DNA of 62,210 nucleotides from Halobacteriaceae archaeon (GTDB taxonomy: Archaea; Halobacteriota; Halobacteria; Halobacteriales; Halobacteriaceae), in assembly GCA_042216675.1 (NCBI GenBank), contig JBDGTS010000002.1, positions 1 through 62,210 of the forward strand, given 5' to 3'. How positions within the stretch are numbered: the stretch's first letter is position 1; every line of letters begins with the position of its first letter. Position numbers and translations under genes: made by a program. The notes below the pieces were generated by a model, which had not been told where the DNA came from, did not search any database, and saw nothing but the letters and a program-made list of their open reading frames with translations. Below are positions 2,916-56,108 of the stretch, piece after piece.

Positions 2916-3341
2916 CTAGTCCTCACGGTGGACCGTCAGCACCGGCACCGACGACGTGCGCACGACGCGTTCGGTGACGCTCCCCAGCAGATAGCGGTCC
3001 AGCCCCTCTCGGCCGTGGGTCGGCATCACGATGACGTCCACGTCGCGCGTCTCGGCATAGTCGAGAATGGTGCGGTAGGGCGGCCCCTGCACGACTTCGC
3101 CCGCCGCTTCGACGCCGCGGCCCTGCGCCCGGTCCACGAGGTCAGCGATGGCCTCCTCGCCTTCGGCTTCGAGGGCGTCCACCACTTCGCCCTCCACCAT
3201 CGTGACGCTCTCGCGGGACGTGTCGGCGACGAACAGGACGGAGAGCGACGCGTCGAACGTGGCGGCGAGGTCGATGGCGTGGTCGAACGCGCCCGCCGCG
3301 CCCTCGCTCCCGTCCGTCGGGAAGAGAATCGACTCGTACAC
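2916..3341 (-). CDS. universal stress protein
   Basis: YESILFPTDGS and MPTHGREGLDRYLLGSVTERVVR motifs. Confidence 0.92.
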   Translation of the reverse strand: MYESILFPTDGSEGAAGAFDHAIDLAATFDASLSVLFVADTSRESVTMVEGEVVDALEAEGEEAIADLVDRAQGRGVEAAGEVVQGPPYRTILDYAETRDVDVIVMPTHGREGLDRYLLGSVTERVVRTSSVPVLTVHRED

Positions 3342-3381
3342 GCCCCGCCATTTGGTGAGGCGGACAAAAAGCCCCGTGGCG

Positions 3382-4614
3382 TCACACGGTGACCGTGTCG
3401 CCGACGGCCGGGGCGGTGGCGTCGAAGCCCATTCCCCGGAGGTCGTCGGCGAAGGCGGCGCAGTCGTCGCCGTGGTTCACGACGACCCGGGCGTCGCGGT
3501 AGGCGTCGAGAAACGACAGGAGGCCCGCCCGGTCGGCGTGCGCCGAGAAGTCGTAGGACTCCACGCGGGCGCTGACCGGCATCACGCGGCCGTCGATTTC
3601 CGCGCGACCGGTGTCGAGCAGTTCTCGGCCGGGAGTGCCTTCCACTTGATAGCCCGTGAGCGTAATCTTGTTCGTCGGACTGCCGCGAATCTCGGGCACG
3701 TAGGTCATCGCCGGGCCGCCCGAGAGCATCCCGCTGGTGGTGACGATGGCCGTCTGCTGGTCGGCGATACGCTTCCGCTGGCCGTCACGACCCGTGACGG
3801 TGCGGGCGTGACCCGCCGCCTCGTCGAGGGCGTCGCCGTCGCGGAGGTACTCGGGGTGGCCCCGGAGCATCTCCGTCACGTCCACGCCCATCCCGTCGAC
3901 GTAGCAGGGGATGTCGTGGCGCGCACAGAGCAGGAGCATCTCCTGTGTCCGCCCGATGGCGAACGCGGGGACGACGACCGTGCCGCCCTCCCAGAGCGTC
4001 GACTGCACGCTCTCGGCGAAGCGCTCCTCGACGGCGCGCCTGTCCTCGTGGTCGACGTCGGCGTAGGTGCTCTCGCAGATGACCACGTCCGCGTCCGGGC
4101 GGGCCGTCGTCCCCGAGACGAGGCGCTGGTCGTCGGTGTGGAAGTCGCCGGTGTAGAGCAAGCGCGTCTCCCCGTCGTCCACGAGGACGTGTGCGCTCCC
4201 GGGGATGTGGCCGGCGTCGTAGAGCGTCACCTCGTAGCCCGCCGCCTCGAACCGCTCGCCGTAGCCGTGCGTCTCCGAGAACTGCGAGACGCGGGCCACG
4301 TCGGCCTCGGTGAACGGACAGCGGTAGGTGTTGCCGTGGAGTTTCAGCGTGTCGCGCGCCAGCGTCCGGCAGAAGTCACGCGTCGGCGGCGTCCAGTGAA
4401 TCGTCGGGTCGCGCTCCCCCGCCACGAGCGACGGGACGGCCCCCGCGTGGTCGAGGTGGCCGTGGGAGACGACGACGGCGTCGGGGGCCACGTCGCCCAC
4501 GGGGGTCCGCGGCGGCGTCCCGGTCAGCAGGCCGTAGTCGAGGAGGAGGCTGTCGTCGACGAGGACGGCGCTCCGTCCGACTTCGCCGGCACCGCCGAGA
4601 AACCGAACGTCCAT
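3382..4614 (-). CDS. MBL-fold beta-CASP ribonuclease (aCPSF-like)
   Basis: HGHLDH, AGHIPGS, TGD, ESTY, FAIGRTQE, FSAHAD and HG motifs. Confidence 0.9.
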   Translation of the reverse strand: MDVRFLGGAGEVGRSAVLVDDSLLLDYGLLTGTPPRTPVGDVAPDAVVVSHGHLDHAGAVPSLVAGERDPTIHWTPPTRDFCRTLARDTLKLHGNTYRCPFTEADVARVSQFSETHGYGERFEAAGYEVTLYDAGHIPGSAHVLVDDGETRLLYTGDFHTDDQRLVSGTTARPDADVVICESTYADVDHEDRRAVEERFAESVQSTLWEGGTVVVPAFAIGRTQEMLLLCARHDIPCYVDGMGVDVTEMLRGHPEYLRDGDALDEAAGHARTVTGRDGQRKRIADQQTAIVTTSGMLSGGPAMTYVPEIRGSPTNKITLTGYQVEGTPGRELLDTGRAEIDGRVMPVSARVESYDFSAHADRAGLLSFLDAYRDARVVVNHGDDCAAFADDLRGMGFDATAPAVGDTVTV

Positions 4615-16924: not shown

Positions 16925-17335
16925 CTACAGCGACAGGGCGAGCGGCCACGCCGCGCCGCCGACGGCGAGGAGTGACAGCGCACCGCCGGTCAGCGCGACG
17001 TTCTTCAGGAAGTCGGTCATCTCGGACTGCTTCTCCTCGGGGTCCTCGACGTTCCAGAAGTCGTGGAACAGAACGGCGGACGAGAGCAAGAACGCCCCCA
17101 GCGCCGCGCCGGCGACGACTGGGAGGACGCCGAGGACGATGGCGACGCCGCCCAGAATCAGCACGGCGCCGGAGCCGAGGACCGATACCTTCGGCAGCGG
17201 GACGCCCTTCGACTCGGCGTAGCCCGCGAGCCAGTCCGTCTGCTGGAAGTGGTTCAGACCCATGAACGCCAGGACGCCGCCGAACAGGAGGCGACCGAGC
17301 AGGAAGGCCACGTCGCTGACGGTGGCGAGCGTCAT
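16925..17335 (-). CDS. DoxX family membrane protein (second paralogue)
   Basis: [31 protein letters not shown]. Confidence 0.88.
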
Positions 17336-17403
17336 TCGCTTCCCTCCGCGCCACAGACTGTCTCGACTACGGTGCAACTGCCAGTTTCGAATGCTGGTTC
17401 CAT
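17332..17403 (-). CDS. putative leader peptide [23 protein letters not shown]
   Basis: 23-codon ORF ending in an ATGA overlap with DoxX; GGAGG inside; AT-rich box about 30 nt upstream. Confidence 0.45.
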
Positions 17404-30015: not shown

Positions 30016-30846
30016 TCAGTGCGGTTCCGCGATGCCTTGCATCCAGACGATTCCGATGTGGACGGCGATGAGCGTCGTCACCACGAAGGGCAACAGGAAG
30101 ACGTGCAGGATGTACATCCTGCGGAGCGTCGCCGCGCCCGGCGAGAAGCCCCCGAAGACGAGTTGTGCAATCCACTCGCCCGCCAGCGGAATCGAGAGCG
30201 ACATCTCGACGCCGATCTGACTCGCCCAGTAGGAGAGCTGGTCCCACGGGAGCAGGTAGCCGGTGTAGCCGAACACCATCGTGAGGCTGATGAGAACGAT
30301 GCCGATGAGCCAGTTCAGTTCGCGTGGCTCCTTGTACGCGCCCGTGAAGTAGACGCGAAGCATGTGCAGGAAGACGGCCGCCGTCATGACCTGTGCCGCC
30401 CACCGGTGGATGGAGCGGAGCATGTAGCCGAAGTTGAGTTCGGTCATGATGTTCGTGATGGAACAGTAGGCGACCGTCGCCCCATCGATGCTTCCGCCCA
30501 TCGACGACGCACACGCCCCCGTCGCCGCGGAGGGCGCGTAGTAGAAGCCAAGTAGCGCACCGCTCACCGCGGCGACGATGTACGCGAGCGTCGAGAACGA
30601 CCCGAGCGCGTACAGTGGATACCAGTACCAGAACTTGTTGTCGAGGTTGTACTGTTCGGTGTGGCTCTTGGGCAGTTGGAAGTTGATGCGGTAGTACATC
30701 GTCTCCAACAGCTCCAGATAGTCCACGAGCCGGAGCCGGCGGTCCAGCCAGATGAGCACCGTCAGGAACGTGTGCTCGACGGGCGTGAGGTCCTTCTCCT
30801 CGAGCCACGCGTCGTGGTCGTGGTCGTCCGCGCGTTCCAGACTCAT
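30016..30846 (-). CDS. petB: cytochrome b (b6-like)
   Basis: RSIHRW..LHMLR, TGYLLPWDQ, YILHVF..VHI heme ligands. Confidence 0.93.
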   Translation of the reverse strand: MSLERADDHDHDAWLEEKDLTPVEHTFLTVLIWLDRRLRLVDYLELLETMYYRINFQLPKSHTEQYNLDNKFWYWYPLYALGSFSTLAYIVAAVSGALLGFYYAPSAATGACASSMGGSIDGATVAYCSITNIMTELNFGYMLRSIHRWAAQVMTAAVFLHMLRVYFTGAYKEPRELNWLIGIVLISLTMVFGYTGYLLPWDQLSYWASQIGVEMSLSIPLAGEWIAQLVFGGFSPGAATLRRMYILHVFLLPFVVTTLIAVHIGIVWMQGIAEPH

Positions 30847-30847
30847 G

Positions 30848-31693
30848 TTATCCGTCCTCCGGGCGCGGGTACGCCACGAACGCACTCTTCACGACGCTGA
30901 ACGGGTCGTAGATGGACTGGTGACACGGGCAGTACACCTTGTTCGCGCCGCCGAAGCGCTCTGCCTGCTCCGAGGACTTGAACCCCGGCGCACAGCAGAA
31001 GTGGGTGCACTTGTTGAGCCACGCCATCACGCCCTGTTGGGTGCTGGCGGACAGCCACTCGTCGTCCTGACTCGCCATCTCCTCGACGCGCGTGGAGCGA
31101 ATTACCTGCACCGGAATCGTGTTCTCGGTGTCCTGCGAGCGCCACGTGACCATCGCCGGCTTGCCGATGCCATCGGCACCGACGCTGTTGCCCCACGTCT
31201 CGTAGTTGCTGAAGTCGTCGATGTGGACCCGGTCACCGACTTCGACGTCCTGCTTTTGCCACTCGTACGGCGGGTCCGAGGCGTAGCGGAAGTAGTCGTC
31301 GCCCTCGTAGTCGGGGGAGATGCCCTGATAGCCTTGCACGCCGCAGTACTGGTACCACTCGGCGCCGTACGTGATGCCGCCGATGTCCTCCTCGGCTATC
31401 TTGATCGTCTCACCGCCGACCTGCTGTTCCTCGACGCTCGGGTAGTGGCCCTTGATGTACCCCTCGTCGTCGATGTCGATGACGACTTGGGGCATCGCGC
31501 GCGGCGCGGGGCCGTCGGTGTTCTCGATGCCGTAGAACTCGGTCGTTCCGCCGCCCGCGCCCGCCCGGTTCGTCAGCGCGTCGACGCTGACGGCGCCGAG
31601 CGAGCCGAACCCGACGAGCGTGGCGCTACCCACGACGCCTTTCACGAACTGCCGTCGGCCGGAACTCTCCGGATATTTGTCGCTTTCGGACAT
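30848..31693 (-). CDS. petA: Rieske Fe-S protein
   Basis: Tat RRQFVK; CTHFCC and CPCHQS boxes. Confidence 0.93.
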   Translation of the reverse strand: MSESDKYPESSGRRQFVKGVVGSATLVGFGSLGAVSVDALTNRAGAGGGTTEFYGIENTDGPAPRAMPQVVIDIDDEGYIKGHYPSVEEQQVGGETIKIAEEDIGGITYGAEWYQYCGVQGYQGISPDYEGDDYFRYASDPPYEWQKQDVEVGDRVHIDDFSNYETWGNSVGADGIGKPAMVTWRSQDTENTIPVQVIRSTRVEEMASQDDEWLSASTQQGVMAWLNKCTHFCCAPGFKSSEQAERFGGANKVYCPCHQSIYDPFSVVKSAFVAYPRPEDG

Positions 31694-40010: not shown

Positions 40011-40078
40011 CCCCGCCGCTACACAATTGTAGTTGAATTACAACAAGTGCGTTGGAAAAGTTTAAGGCAGTTCCCCCG

Positions 40079-40124
40079 ACACCAGATGTTGCGGTCGGAC
40101 GCCATCTCCCCGGATATATGGGGA
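40079..40124 (+). promoter_or_regulatory. putative tandem NrdR boxes
   Basis: ACACCAGATGTTGCGG (40079) and CCCGGATATATGGGGA (40109), 30 bp apart, downstream of TTTAAG. Confidence 0.45.
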
Positions 40125-40147
40125 CGGAGGGTCACGTAGTGACAACT

Positions 40148-40636
40148 ATGAACTGTCCAGACTGCGGCCACGGGCGAACGCGCGTCGTCGACACCGAGAC
40201 CAGTGCCGACGGAACCTCGATTCGACGGCGTCGCGAGTGCGCACGCTGTGACTTTCGGTTCACCACCTACGAGCGACCGGAGTGGGAGACCCTGCAGGTG
40301 AAGAAACGAGACGGGAGCATCGAACCGTTCGACCGCGAGAAACTCCGCGGCGGCATCGAACGCGCCGTCGAGAAGCGTCCGGTCTCCGATGAGGACGTCA
40401 CCGACCTCGTGGAGGCCGTCGAGGGCGAGTTAGAGGCCCGCGACACCCGAATCGTCTCCTCGCGCACCGTCGGCGACCTCGTCTCCGAGCGGCTGCGTGA
40501 CGTGGACAAGGTGGCGTACATCCGCTTTGTCTCCGTGTACGAGGCGTTCTCCGACCCCGAGGAGTTCCTCCGGGAACTCGACGCCGTCCTCACCGACGAA
40601 CTCGACGACGGGAAGCCGCCCGATCCAGACACATGA
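40148..40636 (+). CDS. nrdR: transcriptional repressor NrdR
   Basis: MNCPDC, RRRRECARC..RFTTYE, ATP cone, VAYIRFVSVY. Confidence 0.95.
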   Translation: MNCPDCGHGRTRVVDTETSADGTSIRRRRECARCDFRFTTYERPEWETLQVKKRDGSIEPFDREKLRGGIERAVEKRPVSDEDVTDLVEAVEGELEARDTRIVSSRTVGDLVSERLRDVDKVAYIRFVSVYEAFSDPEEFLRELDAVLTDELDDGKPPDPDT

Positions 40637-42999
40637 GCACTCAGGAATCGACGTTCACCGACACCATCCGCTCCATCGTGGAGCGGGCACGCACAGAGTA
40701 CGACGACCAGTTCGACGACGAGGCACTCGCCGAGATGCGCGAGGCCGCGGCGCGGGACCTGTACGACGGTGCCGACGTGAGCGAAGTGTACGACGCCGTC
40801 GTCGGCGCCGCCACCGCCCGTATCGAGCGGGACCCCGCGTACAAGCGCCTCGCCGCCGGCGTGTTCCGTCAGCGGTACTACCGCGACGTCATCGGCGAGG
40901 ACCTGACCGGCGACGAACTCGACGCCGCCTATCGCGAGACGTTCGTCGAGAACCTCCGCCGCGGGGTCGAGATGGGACTCCTCGACGAGCGCATGACCGA
41001 GCGCTTCGACCTCTCGGCGATGGCCGACGGGCTCGTCCCGGACCGGGACCGCGACTTCGAGTACATGGCCCTGGAGACGCTCTCCCAGCGCTACTTCCTC
41101 AAGACGGAGACGGACGGCGAGCACCTCGAACTGCCACAGGCCTTCTGGATGCGCGTGGCGATGGGCCTCGCTCTGGAGGAAGACGACCCCGCGGCCCGCG
41201 CCGAGGAGTTCTACGAGGTGCTCTCGCGATTCGAGTTCACGCCCTCGACGCCGACGCTGTTTCACAGCGGCACCGCCCACCCACAGTTGTCCTCCTGCTA
41301 CCTGACGACGGTGCAGGACTCGCTGGAACACATCTTCGACTCCTACAAGCACCACGCGAAACTGTCGAAGTGGAGCGGCGGCCTCGGCAACGACTGGACG
41401 AACCTCCGCGCCTCGGGCGCGCTCATCGAATCGACCGGCGTCGAATCCACGGGCGTCGTCCCGTTCCTCCGCATCAGCAACGACGTCACGGCGGCCATCA
41501 ACCGCTCGGGCAAGCGCCGCGGCGCGGCCTGTGCCTACCTCGCCGCGTGGCACCTCGACTTCCCGGCGTTCATCGACCTCAAGCGCAACACCGGCGACGA
41601 GCGACGGCGCACGCCTGACATGAACATCGCCGCGTGGATCCCCGACCTGTTCATGAAGCGCGTCGAGGCGGGCGAGGAGTGGACGCTGTTCTCCCCCGAC
41701 GAGGTGCCGGACCTGCACGACGCGTACGGCGAGGAGTTCGAGGACCTGTACCGCGCCGCCGAGGAGCGCGCCGAAAACGGCGAACTCCGGCAGTACGAGA
41801 CGGTCGATGCCGCGGATCTCTGGCGACAGACGCTCACCCGCCTCTTCGAGACGGGCCATCCGTGGATAACGTTCAAGGACCCCTGTAACGTCCGCAGTCC
41901 GCAGGACCACGTCGGCACTATCCACTCCTCGAACCTCTGCACCGAAATCACGCTCAACACGAGCGCGGACGAACACGCCGTCTGCAACCTCGGGAGCGTC
42001 AACCTCGCCACCCACGTCGCCGACGGCGAACTCGACCGCGAGCGCGTCGAATCGACCGTCGAGACGGCGATGCGGATGCTCGACAACGTCGTGGACCTCT
42101 GTTTCTACCCGACGGCGGAGGCCGAGGCGTCGAACATGCAACACCGCCCCGTCGGTCTCGGCACCATGGGCTTTCACGACGCACTGATGCAGTGTGGCGT
42201 CCCCATGGCCGACGAGGCGGCAATCGAGACGGCCAACCGCTGGCAGGAGTTCGTTTCCTACCACGCCATCTTGAACTCCTCGCGACTGGCCGCCGAGCGC
42301 GACCCCTACCCGTCCTACGAGGGGTCGAAGTGGGACCGTGGCCTCCTGCCACAGGACACCGTGGACCTGCTCGAAGACGAGCGGGGCCGCGAGATCCCCA
42401 CCGACCGGACGGAGACGCTGGACTGGGACCGCGTCCGCGACCACGTCGCGGCCCACGGGATGCGCAACTCCAACACGATGGCCGTCGCGCCCACGGCCAC
42501 CGTCTCCACCATCAACGGCACCACGGCCAGCATCGAGCCGATGTACTCGAACCTCTACGTGAAGTCGAACATGAGCGGCGACTTCACCATCGTCAACGAC
42601 CACCTCGTCGCCGACTTGCGGGAGCGCGGTCTCTGGGACGACGAGATGTTGGACCGGTTGAAGTACCACGACGGCTCCGTGCAGGACATCGACGCCGTGC
42701 CGGACGATCTAAAGCGTCTCTACCGAGGGGCGTTCGAGATCGACCCGCGCCACCAGATCGCGCTCACGGCCCACCGCGGCACGTGGATCGACCAGTCGGT
42801 GTCGCACAACGTCTTCTTCCCCGCCACGGACGGGACGCTCCTCGACGACGTGTACACCGAGGCGTGGCGCCTCGGCCTGAAGACGACGTACTACCTCCGG
42901 ACGCTGGGCGCCTCGCAGTTCGAGAAGTCGACGCTCGACATGGACCAGTACGGAAAGACACAGCACCGTAGCGGCGCCCCCGCGGAGGGTGACCGATGA
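40633..42999 (+). CDS. nrdA: class I ribonucleotide reductase alpha, ending before the C-terminal Cys pair
   Basis: SSCYL, SNLCTEI, VCNLGS, APTAT, KTTYYLR; terminus ...GAPAEGDR* has no Cys. Confidence 0.95.
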   Translation: MSTQESTFTDTIRSIVERARTEYDDQFDDEALAEMREAAARDLYDGADVSEVYDAVVGAATARIERDPAYKRLAAGVFRQRYYRDVIGEDLTGDELDAAYRETFVENLRRGVEMGLLDERMTERFDLSAMADGLVPDRDRDFEYMALETLSQRYFLKTETDGEHLELPQAFWMRVAMGLALEEDDPAARAEEFYEVLSRFEFTPSTPTLFHSGTAHPQLSSCYLTTVQDSLEHIFDSYKHHAKLSKWSGGLGNDWTNLRASGALIESTGVESTGVVPFLRISNDVTAAINRSGKRRGAACAYLAAWHLDFPAFIDLKRNTGDERRRTPDMNIAAWIPDLFMKRVEAGEEWTLFSPDEVPDLHDAYGEEFEDLYRAAEERAENGELRQYETVDAADLWRQTLTRLFETGHPWITFKDPCNVRSPQDHVGTIHSSNLCTEITLNTSADEHAVCNLGSVNLATHVADGELDRERVESTVETAMRMLDNVVDLCFYPTAEAEASNMQHRPVGLGTMGFHDALMQCGVPMADEAAIETANRWQEFVSYHAILNSSRLAAERDPYPSYEGSKWDRGLLPQDTVDLLEDERGREIPTDRTETLDWDRVRDHVAAHGMRNSNTMAVAPTATVSTINGTTASIEPMYSNLYVKSNMSGDFTIVNDHLVADLRERGLWDDEMLDRLKYHDGSVQDIDAVPDDLKRLYRGAFEIDPRHQIALTAHRGTWIDQSVSHNVFFPATDGTLLDDVYTEAWRLGLKTTYYLRTLGASQFEKSTLDMDQYGKTQHRSGAPAEGDR

Positions 43000-43133
43000 G
43001 CGAGGACGGCGACCCCGGAACGCTCCGGTGGGGCGACGACGAACCCGCCGAGGAACCCGACGCGGACGACGACAGCGACCGCGACGCCGAACTGTGCCGC
43101 GTGAGCGACCCGACCTGCGAGGCCTGCCAGTAA
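42996..43133 (+). CDS. free-standing NrdA C-terminal redox-tail peptide (45 aa, ...ELCRVSDPTCEACQ)
   Basis: SD-like GGAGGGTGA (42984-42992), ATGA overlap with the nrdA stop, TAATG overlap with the nrdB start, terminal CEACQ. Confidence 0.75.
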   Translation: MSEDGDPGTLRWGDDEPAEEPDADDDSDRDAELCRVSDPTCEACQ

Positions 43134-44125
43134 TGCCGATTATCAACCACGACGCCGAACACGACCCGAACAAGATTCTGCCCATCGACTACGAGTGGGC
43201 CCGCGAGTACTACGAGGCGGGCGTGGACAACAACTGGGTGCCCGACGAGATCCCGATGCAGGACGACGTGTCCCAGTGGGAGAGCGACGAACTCACCGAC
43301 GCTGAGCGGCAGTTAGTCGAGTGGAACCTCGGCTTCTTCTCGACGGCAGAGTCGTTGACGGCGAACAACATCGTCCTCGCCCTCTACGAGTACGTCACCG
43401 CGCCGGAGTGTCGGCAGTACCTCCTCCGGCAGGCCTACGAGGAGGCCATCCACACGGACACGTTCATCTACTGCTGTGATTCGCTCGGCTTCGACCCGGA
43501 GTACATGTACGGCATGTACGACCGCATTCCCTCCATCCAGCAGAAAGACGAGTTCGTCGTCGACCTCACGCGGGTCATCGACAAGCCCGACTTCACCATC
43601 GAGACGGAGGACGACGTCCGCGCCTTCCTCCGTGACCTCGTGGGCTTCTACGTCATCATGGAGGGCATCTTCTTCTACGCCGGGTTCGCGATGATGCTCG
43701 GCTTGAAACGCCAGCAGAAGATGGTCGGCATCGGCCAGCAGTTCGAGTACATCATGCGCGACGAGTCGCTCCACCTCGGCTTCGGTGTGGACCTCATCGA
43801 CCAGATTCGGACCGAGAACCCCGGCGTCTGGACGCCGGCGTTCGAGGCCGAGGTTCGTGACCTCATCACGGAGGCCGTCGAACTCGAACAGGTGTACGCG
43901 GAGGCGGCCTGTCCCGAGGACGTTCTCGGGATGGGGCCACGCCAGTTCGCCGACTACGTCGAGTACGTCGCGGACCGGCGCTTTGGCCAACTCGACATGG
44001 ACCCGGAGTATCACACCGAAAACCCGTTCCCGTGGATGAGCGAGCAGGCGGACCTCAACAAGGAGAAGAACTTCTTCGAGAGTCAGGTCACGGAGTATCG
44101 AAGCGGCGGGTCGCTCGACTGGTAG
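43133..44125 (+). CDS. nrdB: class I RNR beta subunit with class Ic (Mn/Fe) signatures
   Basis: FSTAES, EEAIHTDTF, MEGIFFY, RDESLH, EKNFFE..VTEY. Confidence 0.93.
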   Translation: MPIINHDAEHDPNKILPIDYEWAREYYEAGVDNNWVPDEIPMQDDVSQWESDELTDAERQLVEWNLGFFSTAESLTANNIVLALYEYVTAPECRQYLLRQAYEEAIHTDTFIYCCDSLGFDPEYMYGMYDRIPSIQQKDEFVVDLTRVIDKPDFTIETEDDVRAFLRDLVGFYVIMEGIFFYAGFAMMLGLKRQQKMVGIGQQFEYIMRDESLHLGFGVDLIDQIRTENPGVWTPAFEAEVRDLITEAVELEQVYAEAACPEDVLGMGPRQFADYVEYVADRRFGQLDMDPEYHTENPFPWMSEQADLNKEKNFFESQVTEYRSGGSLDW

Positions 44126-52270: not shown

Positions 52271-53755
52271 ATGTCCGAGAACACCCACCCGAACGGCCGC
52301 GTACAGCTCCCTGAGACGACGCCAGCGTCCTCAGTGGTGCCGCGAGCCGCGACGGTCGGAGTGTGGGCGCTGTTCCTGCTCAGCCTGACCGTCCTCGCGC
52401 TCTCGGCCGTGCGCGGCGCGGACTGGCGGCTCCCGGGTCTCGTCGTCGTAGACGGACTGACGGCCGTCATGTGGGTCGTCGTCACGTTTTTCAGTGGCAT
52501 CGTCCACTCCTACTCCCGCCGCTACATGGCCGGCGACGCGCGTCTCGACCAGTTCTTCGGTCGCATCTTCGCGTTCACGCTCGTGGTGATGGTCGTGACG
52601 GCGGCTGACCACGTGGCGCTGTTCGCGGCGGCGTGGCTCGGCATGGGACTGACGATGGCTTCGCTCATCGGCCACGTTCGTGGCTGGGAGCAGGCACAGG
52701 CCGCGGCCGCCCTCGCGCGTCGCTACTTCCTCGCGAGCAGCGGACTGCTCGCCGTGAGTCTGGCCCTGCTGGCGTGGGGAGCCAAAACGACCTCGATTAT
52801 CGGCATCCTCGCGCAGGCCGGGTCGCTTCCGCAGACGCTCTCGACGCTCGCCGTCGGTGGACTTCTGCTCGCGGCTCTCGTCCAGTCGGCGCTGTTCCCG
52901 TTCCAGAACTGGCTCCTTTCCTCGATGACGGCGCCCACGCCGGCGTCCGCGCTGATGCACGCCGGGTTCGTCAACGCGGGCGGCATCCTGCTCACCCGCT
53001 TCGCACCGCTCGTCGCGGACGACGCGACGGTGCTGGCGCTCCTCGTCGTCGCCGGCGCGGTGAGCGCCCTCCTCGGACAGGCGCTGTTGCTCGTCCAGAC
53101 GGACGTGAAGCGCACGCTCGGGGCCTCCACGATGGCCCAGATGGGGTTCATGATACTGCAGTGCGGGCTGGGCTTCTTCAGCGCCGCCATCACGCACCTC
53201 ATCCTGCACGGCTTCTACAAGGCGTATCTGTTCCTCTCCTCGGGGGCCACGGTGGAGCAGACGGCGCCCTCGGACAAGTCCCGCGACGGCCTCGGCCTGC
53301 CGGGGCTCGCGGTCAGTCTCGCGGCCGCGCTCGCCGGCGGCGCGCTCTTCGTCGCCATCACCGGCAAGGGGGCCAAGCTGAACTCGGGCGCGTTCCTCGC
53401 CCTCGTCGTCGTGCTGACGACGCTCCACGCGGCGCGCGACGTGCTCCGGCAGTCCACGCTCTCGCCGACGCTCAAACTCGTCAGCATTCCGTTCGTCGTC
53501 GCTATCCCCATCGGCGTCTACGGGCTGCTGTTCGAGGGCATCTCGGCCCTGCTGGCGGACGTGCCGATGGCCACCGCGCCGACGGACCTCACGGCTGTCC
53601 ACGTCGGCGTCGGCGCGCTGTTCGTCGCCGCGTACGTGGCCGTGGACCTCGGCTGGCACCGCGCCAGCAAGCGCCTCTACGTCGCCCTGCTGAACCTCTC
53701 ACAGCCCGCTCCCGACACCGTGTTGACCACCACGGAGGACTACAATGACGCATAA
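52271..53755 (+). CDS. dabB: DabB/MpsA NuoL-like membrane subunit of an inorganic carbon transporter
   Basis: WLLSSMTAPTPASALMHAGFVNAGG, HLILHGFYKAYLFL; overlaps the DUF2309 gene. Confidence 0.88.
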   Translation: MSENTHPNGRVQLPETTPASSVVPRAATVGVWALFLLSLTVLALSAVRGADWRLPGLVVVDGLTAVMWVVVTFFSGIVHSYSRRYMAGDARLDQFFGRIFAFTLVVMVVTAADHVALFAAAWLGMGLTMASLIGHVRGWEQAQAAAALARRYFLASSGLLAVSLALLAWGAKTTSIIGILAQAGSLPQTLSTLAVGGLLLAALVQSALFPFQNWLLSSMTAPTPASALMHAGFVNAGGILLTRFAPLVADDATVLALLVVAGAVSALLGQALLLVQTDVKRTLGASTMAQMGFMILQCGLGFFSAAITHLILHGFYKAYLFLSSGATVEQTAPSDKSRDGLGLPGLAVSLAAALAGGALFVAITGKGAKLNSGAFLALVVVLTTLHAARDVLRQSTLSPTLKLVSIPFVVAIPIGVYGLLFEGISALLADVPMATAPTDLTAVHVGVGALFVAAYVAVDLGWHRASKRLYVALLNLSQPAPDTVLTTTEDYNDA

Positions 53756-56108
53756 GGACACCGACATCGAGCAACGCATCGACGACGCGGCGGAGCGCAT
53801 CGGCTCGGTCTGGCCGCTGCACTCGTTCGTCACGGCCAACCCGCTGTCCGGCTTCGAGGACCGACCGTTCCACGAGGCCGTCGCCGAGGCCGAACAGCTG
53901 TTCGGCGGCCGCGGCTACCCCCACCCCTCGGTCTTCAGGCAGGCGTGGGAGCGCGGCCAGATCGACGACGAGATACTGCACGCCGAACTGGACGCCAACG
54001 GCGTCGACGCTGACCCGGAGACGCTGTTAGACGAGATGGCCGCGACGGAATCGGACGACGCGGACCCCGACGCCGACTCGGCGACCGCCGAACTCGACCG
54101 CGTCCTCTCGAAGTGGCTCGCCGCGTTCCTCGACCACGGTACCGCCGCGTGGCCGATGCCCGACCGCGAGGACGGCTTCTACGCCGCGTGGCGCGCGGTG
54201 GCGCCCCACGACGGCGACGTCCCCGGCTGTGACAGCACCGCCGACGTCCCCGAACGCCCCGAGAACGCGATTGAGACGGTGCTCGCGGAGTATCCGCGTT
54301 CGGAGTGGGGCGACGTCTTCGAACACCACCTCGCCGCGCTCCCCGGCTGGACCGGTTTCATCAAGCAGCGCACCGAGAACGCCGACGAGTGGCAGTCGGC
54401 GTCACCGATTTCGCTCACCGACTACCTCGCCGTGCGCCTCGTCCTCGCGGAGTTCCTCGACGCGCCCATCGAACCGGACGCCGACGACGCCGCCCCCGAC
54501 GACGAGGTGCCGCTTCCCGAACTCTGGCTGTCGGCGTGGGAGAAGAGCCACCGCGCCCGCCTCGTCGGGCAGTTGGCGGACCCGAGCGAGGCCACGGACA
54601 CCGGGCGCCCCGACGCGCAACTGGTGTTCTGCATCGACACGCGTTCGGAGGTCATCCGGCGTCACGTCGAGACCGTCGGCGACTACGAGACGCACGGCTA
54701 CGCGGGCTTTTTCGGCGTCCCGATGCGCCATCAGGCCTACGACGCCGAGGTGGCCGTCGACGCCTGCCCGCCCATCGTCGACCCCGAGCACCGCATCAGG
54801 GACCGCCCGACAGAGGACGACGCGCGCGAGCGTTACGACCGCTGGACGGGCGTCCTGAAGACGGGAAAGACGCTCCTCAAGGACCTGAAGACGAACGCGG
54901 CGACGGCGTTCAGCCTCGTCGAGAGCACTGGCGCCGGATACGGGGCGGCGCTCGCCGCCCGGACGCTTTTGCCCGGCCGCGTCTCGAACCTGCTCGACAC
55001 CCCCGACGAACACGAGTTCGTCGGGCCGTCGGTGGACTACAACCCCGACTCCGTGCACGCCCTCCGCGAGGGACTCACGCACGCCGAGAAGGTCGAGTAC
55101 GCACAGACGGCCTTCGAACTGATGGGCTGGGAGGAGTTCGCCCGCCTCGTCGTGTTCACCGGGCACGCCAGCGAGACGACGAACAACCCGTTCGATTCGA
55201 GTCTCGACTGCGGCGCCTGCGCCGGCAACCCCGGCGGACCGAACGCCCGCGTCCTCGCGGCCATCTGCAACGACGACGACGTGCAGGCCGACCTCCGCGA
55301 ACGCGGCTTCGACGTGCCCGAGGACACGGTGTTCCTCGCGGCCGAACACAACACGACGACCGACGAAATCACGCTGTTCGACGGCGACGTGCCCGCGAGC
55401 CACGAGGCGGACGTCGAGCAGTTGCGCGCGGACCTCGGGACGGCACAGGAGCGTGCGACGGCCGAGCGCACGAACGGCGTCAGCGAGGCCGAACGCCGGG
55501 CCGGCGACTGGGCGGAGACGCGCCCCGAGTGGGGACTCGCCGGCAACGCTTCGTTCGTCGTCGGGCCGCGCGAACTGACCGACGGCGAGCACCTCGACGG
55601 GCGCACGTTCCTCCACTCCTACGACTGGACCACCGACCCCGACGGCGATGCACTGGAGGCAATCATGACCGGGCCGCTCGTCGTCACCCAGTGGATAAAC
55701 AGCCAGTACTACTTCGCCACCGTCGACAACGCCGTCTACGGAAGCGGCTCCAAGGTGACCCACAATCCGGTCGGCAACGTCGGCGTGTATCAGGGCAACG
55801 GCGGCGACCTCATGACCGGACTTCCCCTCCAGTCGCTGTACGCCGACGCCGACACCCCGCACCACCAGCCGCTGCGCCTGACGGCAGTCATCCACGCCCC
55901 GGTCGAACAGGTCACCGAGATTCTCCGTGACAACGAACAGCTCGCCCAGCTTCTCGACAACGGTTGGCTCCGCCTGACGGTCCTCGACCCCGAACAGGAC
56001 GGCGCGCCGGTTCACTATCAGGGCGACTTCGAGTGGGAGTCGCCGCAGGCCGAGCGGACCCCGGTGAAACAGCCGGCGCCAGTCGCGTCCGGTGGCGCGG
56101 CCGACTGA
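53745..56108 (+). CDS. dabA: DabA/MpsB (DUF2309) beta-carbonic-anhydrase-like subunit
   Basis: WPLHSFVTANPL, FCIDTRSE, GH, LDCGACAG, RPEWGLAGN, GSGSK..HN. Confidence 0.92.
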   Translation: MTHKDTDIEQRIDDAAERIGSVWPLHSFVTANPLSGFEDRPFHEAVAEAEQLFGGRGYPHPSVFRQAWERGQIDDEILHAELDANGVDADPETLLDEMAATESDDADPDADSATAELDRVLSKWLAAFLDHGTAAWPMPDREDGFYAAWRAVAPHDGDVPGCDSTADVPERPENAIETVLAEYPRSEWGDVFEHHLAALPGWTGFIKQRTENADEWQSASPISLTDYLAVRLVLAEFLDAPIEPDADDAAPDDEVPLPELWLSAWEKSHRARLVGQLADPSEATDTGRPDAQLVFCIDTRSEVIRRHVETVGDYETHGYAGFFGVPMRHQAYDAEVAVDACPPIVDPEHRIRDRPTEDDARERYDRWTGVLKTGKTLLKDLKTNAATAFSLVESTGAGYGAALAARTLLPGRVSNLLDTPDEHEFVGPSVDYNPDSVHALREGLTHAEKVEYAQTAFELMGWEEFARLVVFTGHASETTNNPFDSSLDCGACAGNPGGPNARVLAAICNDDDVQADLRERGFDVPEDTVFLAAEHNTTTDEITLFDGDVPASHEADVEQLRADLGTAQERATAERTNGVSEAERRAGDWAETRPEWGLAGNASFVVGPRELTDGEHLDGRTFLHSYDWTTDPDGDALEAIMTGPLVVTQWINSQYYFATVDNAVYGSGSKVTHNPVGNVGVYQGNGGDLMTGLPLQSLYADADTPHHQPLRLTAVIHAPVEQVTEILRDNEQLAQLLDNGWLRLTVLDPEQDGAPVHYQGDFEWESPQAERTPVKQPAPVASGGAAD

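Follow-up and report, generated by a model that had tools for sequence, protein, structure and literature searches.

Organization of the nrd operon

The subject of this work is a ribonucleotide reductase (RNR) operon in a 62,210-nucleotide (nt) stretch of DNA from a Halobacteriaceae archaeon (assembly GCA_042216675.1, contig JBDGTS010000002.1, positions 1 to 62,210; this whole stretch is referred to below as the window), in which the gene for the class I large subunit, nrdA, ends before the redox-active tail and a separate open reading frame (ORF) of 45 codons, carrying the cysteine motif of such a tail, lies between nrdA and the small-subunit gene nrdB (Table 1). The operon is headed by an nrdR-like gene, the longest ORF of which begins with the TTG at 40052, ATG 40148 (MNCPDC...) being the likelier start; an ATGA overlap joins the stop of this gene to the start of nrdA.

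Table 1. Features of the nrd operon, similar junction motifs in the window and the second RNR of the same genome
Feature	Position	Strand	Remarks
nrdR-like regulator gene	40052..40636	+	Pfam Zn_ribbon_NrdR (PF22811, residues 33-74) and ATP-cone (PF03477)
nrdA, class I RNR large subunit	40633..42999	+	788 amino acids (aa), stop TGA 42997-42999
Shine-Dalgarno-like GGAGG within the 3' end of nrdA	42984..42988	+	7 nt 5' of the micro-ORF ATG
micro-ORF with the putative NrdA redox tail	42996..43133	+	45 aa; C34, C41, C44; N-terminal L10-x-W12
ATGA stop/start overlap, nrdA/micro-ORF	42996..42999	+	micro-ORF ATG at 42996
TAATG stop/start overlap, micro-ORF/nrdB	43131..43135	+	TAA 43131-43133, nrdB ATG 43133
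nrdB, small subunit	43133..44125	+	330 aa; class Ic-like by sequence; C-terminus ...SLDW; PF00268
other GGAGG-N5-9-ATGA sites	17332-17347, 30843-30860, 53734-53748, 55655-55668		motif scan of the window
class II-like RNR	source genome (G000) contig 4, 77955-79655 (L032 1405-3567)	-	two routes to deoxynucleotides

The catalytic part of NrdA is complete. Its barrel covers positions 1-523 of the 523 positions of PF02867 (E 2.5e-186), the all-alpha domain is matched by PF00317 (E 5.8e-24), and no ATP-cone was matched in NrdA by Pfam. In an alignment of 44 NrdA sequences (A1), C222, N434, C436, E438, C451, Y753 and Y754 occupy invariant columns; presumably, they correspond to the catalytic positions of the E. 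coli numbering. The protein ends in ...QHRSGAPAEGDR (...APAEGDR) with no Cys among its last 30 residues. A preliminary description of this locus, made from the sequence alone, had claimed both the retention of the catalytic residues and the absence of C-terminal cysteines, and both claims hold. The redox Cys pair is not on the same chain as the NrdA core: it is encoded by the next ORF, in the -1 frame relative to nrdA. The best solved relative of NrdA is 5im3 (E 1.6e-252), which we take to be the enzyme of Pseudomonas aeruginosa, and the placement of the window protein in the NrdAz group depends on this presumed identity. The NrdAz group, as delineated by Burnim et al., includes the P. aeruginosa and Chlamydia enzymes (PMC9669993).

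The NrdB protein, the gene of which follows the micro-ORF, matches PF00268 with an E value of 1.3e-84. Among solved structures, it comes closest to 6y2n, 1syy and 4d8f (E about 1e-121), the latter two of which we take to be the class Ic protein of Chlamydia. In the alignment with 6y2n (...EEAIHTDTF... versus ...EEAVHTHTF...), a Phe is found at the position of the radical Tyr, provided that the column is, as we assume, that of the Tyr site; on this sequence feature, the enzyme of the window is class Ic-like. The same genome encodes a second RNR, a class II-like protein of 720 aa with a Cys-Cys-Pro-Leu tail.

At the nrdA/micro-ORF junction, the segment GGAGGGTGA at 42984-42992 contains the Shine-Dalgarno-like (SD) element, so that the 4-nt ATGA overlap is preceded, within the upstream gene, by an SD motif, as in translationally coupled overlapping gene pairs. 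Both overlaps and the SD element, as originally proposed, are confirmed by the window sequence. Upstream of the micro-ORF, its frame is closed by TGA 42990-42992 and by TAG 42969-42971. Because of this TGA, a single-base change could rejoin the two frames only within 42993-42996, and an insertion or deletion (indel) in the run of five cytosines at 42977-42981, inside the 3' end of nrdA, could not, just as the preliminary description had it. That description had also called the 45-aa ORF unannotated, a detail for which we found no confirmation: the protein collection that we searched contains the identical 45-aa sequence as a called protein, with NCBI as its source. The combination GGAGG-N5-9-ATGA occurs at five sites in the window versus 1.43 expected, a number reached in 2 of 100 shuffles; at two of the sites, 30843 and 53734, long ORFs meet in what look to be coupled gene pairs.

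Authenticity and recurrence of the split

When a conserved gene appears to be divided by a shift of frame, the quality of the sequence has to be considered first. The source genome is a metagenome-assembled one, consists of 58 contigs and is 80% complete. The window stretch is present in two salt-lake sequencing runs of one study, and in both runs, Logan contigs bridge the junction. No RNA run turned up among the sequencing runs listed for the stretch. The contig of run X2 (395 nt, depth 12.3, 42792-43186) shows 0 differences and 0 gaps, and that of run X1 (686 nt, depth 17.9, 42532-43186) shows 45 substitutions and 0 gaps; no indels were reported at the junction in either. These runs may be the source samples of the genome itself, in which case the check excludes an assembler slip and nothing else. 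An extra base that would fuse the ORFs, which the preliminary description had named as a possible refutation, is not there in the contigs of either run. Together with the recurrence described below, the split is genuine DNA and not an assembly artefact. The 34 substitutions of the X1 contig that were listed (out of 45) all fall within 42611-42780 of nrdA, and this variation points to a strain variant or a recombinant in the same sample.

A search of 41 relatives with the junction DNA found the nrdA-nrdB junction in 10 genomes, and in all 10, NrdA is fused and ends in the Cys motif. In a collection of 5.8 billion proteins, the 45-aa peptide matched only itself and P0002, a 43-aa protein that is 76% identical to it and is encoded on 4 contigs, the longest of 141,805 nt. 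The NrdA C-terminus was also used to scan metagenome contigs and a set with one genome per species, which yielded 160 further loci. Among the resulting 171 NrdA loci, 164 are fused (163 scored as such plus L104, mis-scored as split through a chance CxxC), three are split by a frameshift, and one is interrupted by an in-frame stop; of the remaining three, L039 extends past the end of its contig, and no motif was obtained for L056 and L086. The three frameshift-split loci are the window, L033 (a JGI contig of 141,805 nt, with 93% identity to the window over the C-terminal 299 aa of NrdA) and L034 (a 1,928-nt contig from ENA, with 89% identity of the NrdA C-terminus), the latter two coming from data sets other than that of the window. 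The peptide of L034 is a called gene as well, on 2 contigs. The recurrence of the split, of the SD element and of the overlaps that the preliminary description had envisaged is thus borne out: all three loci have the GGAGGG, the ATGA and the TAATG in identical form. Of the best 120 among 8000 proteins in a search for tail-less NrdA, only P0038, which is the NrdA of L033, lacks the tail; P0072, P0149 and P0100 are fused NrdA proteins with short linkers.

In the NrdA tree (a quick IQ-TREE search of 66 rows under LG+G4), the window, L033 and L034 form one clade with a support of 100 in the SH-like approximate likelihood ratio test (SH-aLRT), path lengths within this clade being 0.09-0.16, and a single change of state accounts for the split. 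Hence, the split goes back to one event, which took place in the ancestor of a small clade of haloarchaea. As for the manner of its origin, a frameshift in situ and the capture of a free-standing gene are indistinguishable: the likeness between the N-terminus of the peptide and the linkers of fused proteins (such as ...PAEGLESDGGRP... of L036) is too weak and of low complexity.

A different arrangement is seen at L098, a metagenome contig from a non-halophile, where an in-frame stop lies between the NrdA core and a stretch of 66 codons that ends in the Cys motif at locus position 1796 and has an internal Met 43 codons from its end. We read this locus as a split of a second type or as a broken gene.

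Selection on the micro-ORF

Nonsynonymous (dN) and synonymous (dS) distances were calculated pairwise among the three split lineages by the Nei-Gojobori method. Among these lineages, dS is 0.36-0.52. The dN/dS ratio is 0.10-0.15 for nrdA (window versus L033 and L034) and 0.108 for nrdB (window versus L033), and therefore, the genes of the enzyme have been in use since the split. Within the peptide, the indels among the three lineages are of 3 and 6 nt, so that the frame is kept, and the ATG as well as 12 of 14 motif residues are retained. The changes concentrate in the acidic middle of the peptide, a region that is freely variable in fused tails, too, and the Cys motif is the most conserved part, with D38, T40, C41, C44 and Q45 invariant across 45 tails.

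How much of this conservation could be expected by chance was judged from a neutral simulation at the observed distances, under a crude F81 model with third-position base frequencies and on the presumption that the split is older than the divergence of the three lineages. Under these assumptions, the probability of keeping the ATG without acquiring a stop is 0.09-0.18, that of keeping the three cysteines is 0.008-0.027, and 12 or more of the 14 motif residues would survive with a probability below 2e-4 per pair. The micro-ORF is maintained by purifying selection together with nrdA and nrdB, and the possibility, raised in the preliminary description, of a pseudogene unique to one strain gives way to a three-member clade in which all three genes are under such selection.

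The appearance of an unselected tail can be seen in an nrdAB remnant of another haloarchaeon (L224; G267 contig 36, about 3200-3500), where a Cys of the tail has become Trp and nrdB is broken by stops. In another genome (L223; G133 contig 21), a 37-aa ORF lies directly 5' of an intact-looking nrdB, ends at locus position 3493 and joins an NrdA-like N-terminus to the Cys tail, P0025 (85 aa) being a longer version of it. This pair was considered as a second split and rejected: it is the remnant of an internal deletion in nrdA that joined the N-terminus to the tail.

A probable redox tail acting in trans

We consider it probable that the window encodes a class I (Ic-like) RNR whose redox tail is made as a separate, translationally coupled micro-protein that acts in trans. 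In Haloferax volcanii, ribosomes have been shown to terminate and reinitiate at ATGA overlaps, usually with the help of an SD motif (Huber et al. 2019, PMC6728339, in excerpt). Translation of the micro-ORF by reinitiation is suggested because the window has the same combination of ATGA overlap and SD motif, and because such combinations are enriched in the window. The micro-protein would be made when ribosomes that terminate at the nrdA stop reinitiate at the overlapping ATG with the help of the GGAGG 7 nt upstream, and this coupling would give roughly one micro-protein per NrdA chain.

In class I and class II RNRs, C-terminal cysteines mediate thiol-disulfide exchange with the physiological reductants (PMC4520616, in excerpt). 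The next steps can be envisaged as follows: after each turnover, the Cys pair C41/C44 of the micro-protein, with C34 nearby, would enter the active site of NrdA and reduce the disulfide formed there, and would then itself be re-reduced by thioredoxin or glutaredoxin, so that its role would mirror that of the covalently attached tail of a fused NrdA. Such an attached tail is disordered. By analogy, we infer that the micro-protein supplies the tail that NrdA is missing.

A detached tail would have to find its partner, and a possible means is provided by the N-terminal part of the peptide. Conservation of L10 and W12 reaches at least 90% across 20 aligned stand-alone tails, and a Trp in the linker is found in 0 of 164 fused tails. 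The C-terminal end of NrdB binds the large subunit in class I RNRs. Across 131 loci, the NrdB C-termini read SLDW (67), SLEW (25), QLEW (11) or variants such as ...SWDD, and the solved structure 6y2n ends in ...ALDW, akin to the NrdB end in the window. The resemblance of the L-x-W of stand-alone tails to the NrdB end suggests a non-covalent anchor: this L-x-W, with the acidic residues that come after it, would hold the micro-protein on NrdA and may use the very groove that binds the similar end of NrdB. The preliminary description had spoken of a diffusible peptide, which appears doubtful inasmuch as an L-x-W that is kept in stand-alone tails and absent from fused ones suggests docking.

Prediction of the complex of NrdA with the peptide gave a score of 0.50, compared to 0.01 for the best of 3 controls, with runs that share at least 57% of contacts and with at least 52 (52-55) for the predicted local distance difference test (pLDDT) of the partner. 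The mark used for such scores is attained by 58 out of 80 solved complexes and, among 110 mismatched pairs, by 2; scores at the mark but not above 0.60 are seen in only 7 of the 80 solved complexes and in both of the passing mismatches; the prediction used alignments of our own making, so that these benchmark counts hold only roughly, and it gave no interface. Taken as it is, the prediction lends weak support to binding of the peptide by NrdA.

Objections and alternative explanations

Several observations weigh against a tail that acts in trans. That the micro-protein is translated and active is what we infer from the DNA. The split clade has three members only, and one of them, L034, is a 1.9-kb contig at coverage 2.3. 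The peptide has a dN/dS of 0.32-0.49, which exceeds the nrdA value by a factor of three to four, and the pairwise counts behind it are small (about 8 synonymous and 12-17 nonsynonymous differences); the neutral probabilities depend on a crude model and on the presumed age of the split. The third reading frame, according to the ORF listing, is likewise open across the micro-ORF, which implies that open frames are cheap in GC-rich DNA. The GGAGG falls in the codons of a conserved A-E-G, and its conservation may thus be a matter of the protein. With the class II-like RNR also present, nrdAB may be dispensable. The score of the predicted complex may have profited from fused relatives, whose tails were part of the alignment. 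Finally, an L-x-W seated in the groove of the NrdB tail would compete with NrdB, which fits an inhibitor as well as a shuttle.

It is conceivable that the truncation is simply tolerated, i.e., that the tail was lost by a frameshift, that NrdA directly uses a small-molecule thiol or can be spared thanks to the class II enzyme, and that the ORF is a relic which has not yet decayed and whose product is either absent or without use. The second RNR in the genome, the elevated dN/dS of the peptide and the existence of nrdA and nrdAB remnants in the other haloarchaeal genomes mentioned above would all fit such a scenario, as would the suggestion that some RNRs without C-terminal cysteines employ small reductants (bioRxiv 10.1101/2022.04.23.489257, in excerpt). 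However, at the dS observed here, the ATG, the frame or the cysteines should already be gone from a relic, and the probability of retaining the motif is below the 2e-4 given above; the indels of the peptide keep the frame; and the strong constraint on nrdA and nrdB indicates an enzyme in use. We regard a tolerated truncation as improbable.

An equally improbable alternative, in our judgement, is that the micro-protein is a regulator or competitor, which binds NrdA via the L-x-W and mainly blocks the binding of NrdB, shuttling no electrons. The likeness of the L-x-W to the NrdB end speaks for this, as do the look-alike peptides of viruses, described below, which are encoded in records that yielded no RNR large subunit (0 of 5). 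Yet the NrdA proteins of the split clade have no other Cys pair at their ends, so that the shuttle must come from somewhere, and it is the Cys motif, with its five invariant residues, that is the most conserved part of the peptide.

Much less probable still is recoding, by which a programmed -1 frameshift or transcriptional slippage would yield a normal, fused NrdA. The tail frame is indeed -1 relative to nrdA and, in L033 and L034, is open for more than 35 codons upstream, but in the window this frame is closed by the TGA so that two codons are left for a shift, no X-XXY-YYZ heptamer is found at the junction, the three lineages differ in their last sense codon (CGA, CGA, CAA), the run of five cytosines is absent from L033 and L034, and frameshifting would need neither a conserved ATG nor an SD motif. 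A sequencing or assembly error, for which one might invoke the fragmented and incomplete genome and the possible identity of the two runs with its source samples, can be practically dismissed, as an independent assembler produced the same letters at a depth of 12-18 in two samples and the same split is found in two diverged contigs of other data sets (93% and 89% identity of the NrdA C-terminus).

Comparison with known systems

The closest parallel to the trans-acting tail proposed here is the split class II enzyme NrdJa/NrdJb of P. aeruginosa and other Proteobacteria, where NrdJb supplies the redox cysteines in trans and is essential in vivo (PMC4520616, in excerpt). As in the window, one operon encodes two polypeptides, the first with the whole catalytic machinery and the second with the redox cysteines, and both pieces derive, according to the same excerpt, from a single-chain ancestor. 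The differences are substantial: NrdJa/NrdJb is a bacterial class II enzyme that uses adenosylcobalamin and has no NrdB, whereas the window enzyme is archaeal, of class I and with an NrdB; the second chain of the former has about 230 aa with folded domains, whereas that of the latter has 45 aa, is acidic and belongs to no Pfam family (the peptide found no match in Pfam); and, unlike in NrdJa/NrdJb, the second piece of the window sits between nrdA and nrdB, with overlaps of 4 nt and 1 nt. By this analogy, the system of the window would be the functional class I counterpart of NrdJa/NrdJb.

In the excerpt available, Crona et al. 2015 state that, among non-viral organisms, split RNRs occur only in proteobacterial class II enzymes (PMC4520616). 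The claim of an undescribed three-component RNR in the preliminary description has to be narrowed accordingly: an RNR split with the redox cysteines on a second chain is known from that work, as far as the excerpt goes, and what appears undescribed is a class I, archaeal version of 45 aa. In the literature searched, which did not extend to subscription journals or supplements, we found no account of a class I tail with a gene of its own.

The fused NrdA proteins of haloarchaea and of the P. aeruginosa/Chlamydia type have cores 66-91% identical to that of the window, and they share the C-terminal motif ...LC.V.DPTC.ACQ with the micro-ORF and the nrdA-nrdB order and TAATG overlap with the operon. 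They differ in that the tail is kept on the chain, as in 164 of 171 loci, with no linker Trp in any of the 164, whereas the tail of the window is separate and has the L-x-W. In Aeromonas phage Aeh1, as in the window, a class I large-subunit gene is divided into two ORFs; the break is reportedly inside the catalytic core, and the products must reassemble. The window differs in being archaeal, in having no mobile element at the junction and in that only the disordered tail is separated. The Aeh1 split has been ascribed to a mobile genetic element (PMC3045599, in excerpt), and splits of phage RNRs involve introns, inteins or homing endonucleases (Dwivedi et al. 2013, PMC3653736, in excerpt). [quoted passage not shown]

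If the tail does act in trans, the principle of the split RNR would extend to class I and to archaea, and the window would provide another example of gene fission giving rise to a functional micro-protein. A natural, separate tail of 45 residues would also be a clean system in which the step of tail re-reduction could be titrated, labelled, mutated and trapped. RNR is an established drug target. Should the L-x-W anchor and the phage look-alikes hold, they would point to small peptides that address RNR via the groove at the subunit interface.

Free-standing tails outside the split clade

A profile built from 45 tails (A2) was compared with short proteins and gave 36 hits among 1875 candidates, 32 sequences of which were examined. 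Several are fragments of fused NrdA at contig ends, and 14 are complete small proteins of 41-78 aa, including the window peptide and P0002. Twelve others (P0006, P0007, P0010, P0012, P0013, P0015, P0016 and P0018-P0022), encoded with fewer G+C-rich codons, combine the haloarchaeal Cys end with N-termini (..P.L.W..) like that of the window peptide, to which they look homologous; one of them is encoded on a contig of 1,125,078 nt. No such lower-GC stand-alone gene was found in a sample of 401 genomes of the class, all 13 tail matches in the 257-genome family of G133 were fused, with no stand-alone tail, and tblastn of P0010 against plasmids returned only two fused NrdA tails. In the ESM Atlas, this lower-GC group is represented by clusters without recorded taxa and with borderline scores.

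When 1.84 billion representatives were searched exhaustively with a profile, 22 hits with E values up to 0.001 were obtained, 21 of which are 29-85 aa long; they include peptides of non-halophiles that end in KLC[RK]IEDP.CEACQ, many with a W followed by acidic residues. Ten viral contigs match, and six of these have free-standing tail ORFs (L244, L248, L245, L246, L249 and L250) of 47-77 codons with a Trp-acidic motif and the ending ...CEACQ or ...CEACGS. An RNR large subunit turned up in none of the five viral tail-ORF records that were searched for it, one of them 97% complete, which means that not every free-standing tail need have been split from a neighbouring nrdA. A scan of viral contigs with A4 gave 29 pattern matches, none of which was confirmed, and tblastn of P0159 and P0165 against phage genomes found no match.

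These peptides invite a more far-reaching proposal, which we put forward as a rather doubtful one: the 45-aa product might be a two-headed adaptor that takes turns with NrdB and belongs to a wider, undescribed family of RNR-tail peptides. Its N-terminal L-x-W and acidic residues would copy the NrdB end and dock in the groove of the NrdB tail, its C-terminus would be the redox tail, and the alternation on each NrdA chain would be one of radical delivery followed by re-reduction; the lower-GC halophile group (P0006-P0022) and the phage-encoded versions would be branches of the family. If this were true, the phage versions could feed or jam the class I RNR of the host, and the split itself may stem from the capture of a free-standing gene rather than from a simple frameshift.

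Four loci from genomes of one genus (L225-L228) matched the full profile of stand-alone tails and were rejected as such: they are fused and have ...EW... only, not the L-x-W. Their conserved ...EW.S... stands just before the Cys motif, and no other fused tail that we saw contains a Trp. Two further small proteins, P0023 (103 aa, PF24398) and P0014 (91 aa), have unrelated N-terminal parts joined to the Cys motif of the NrdA tail.

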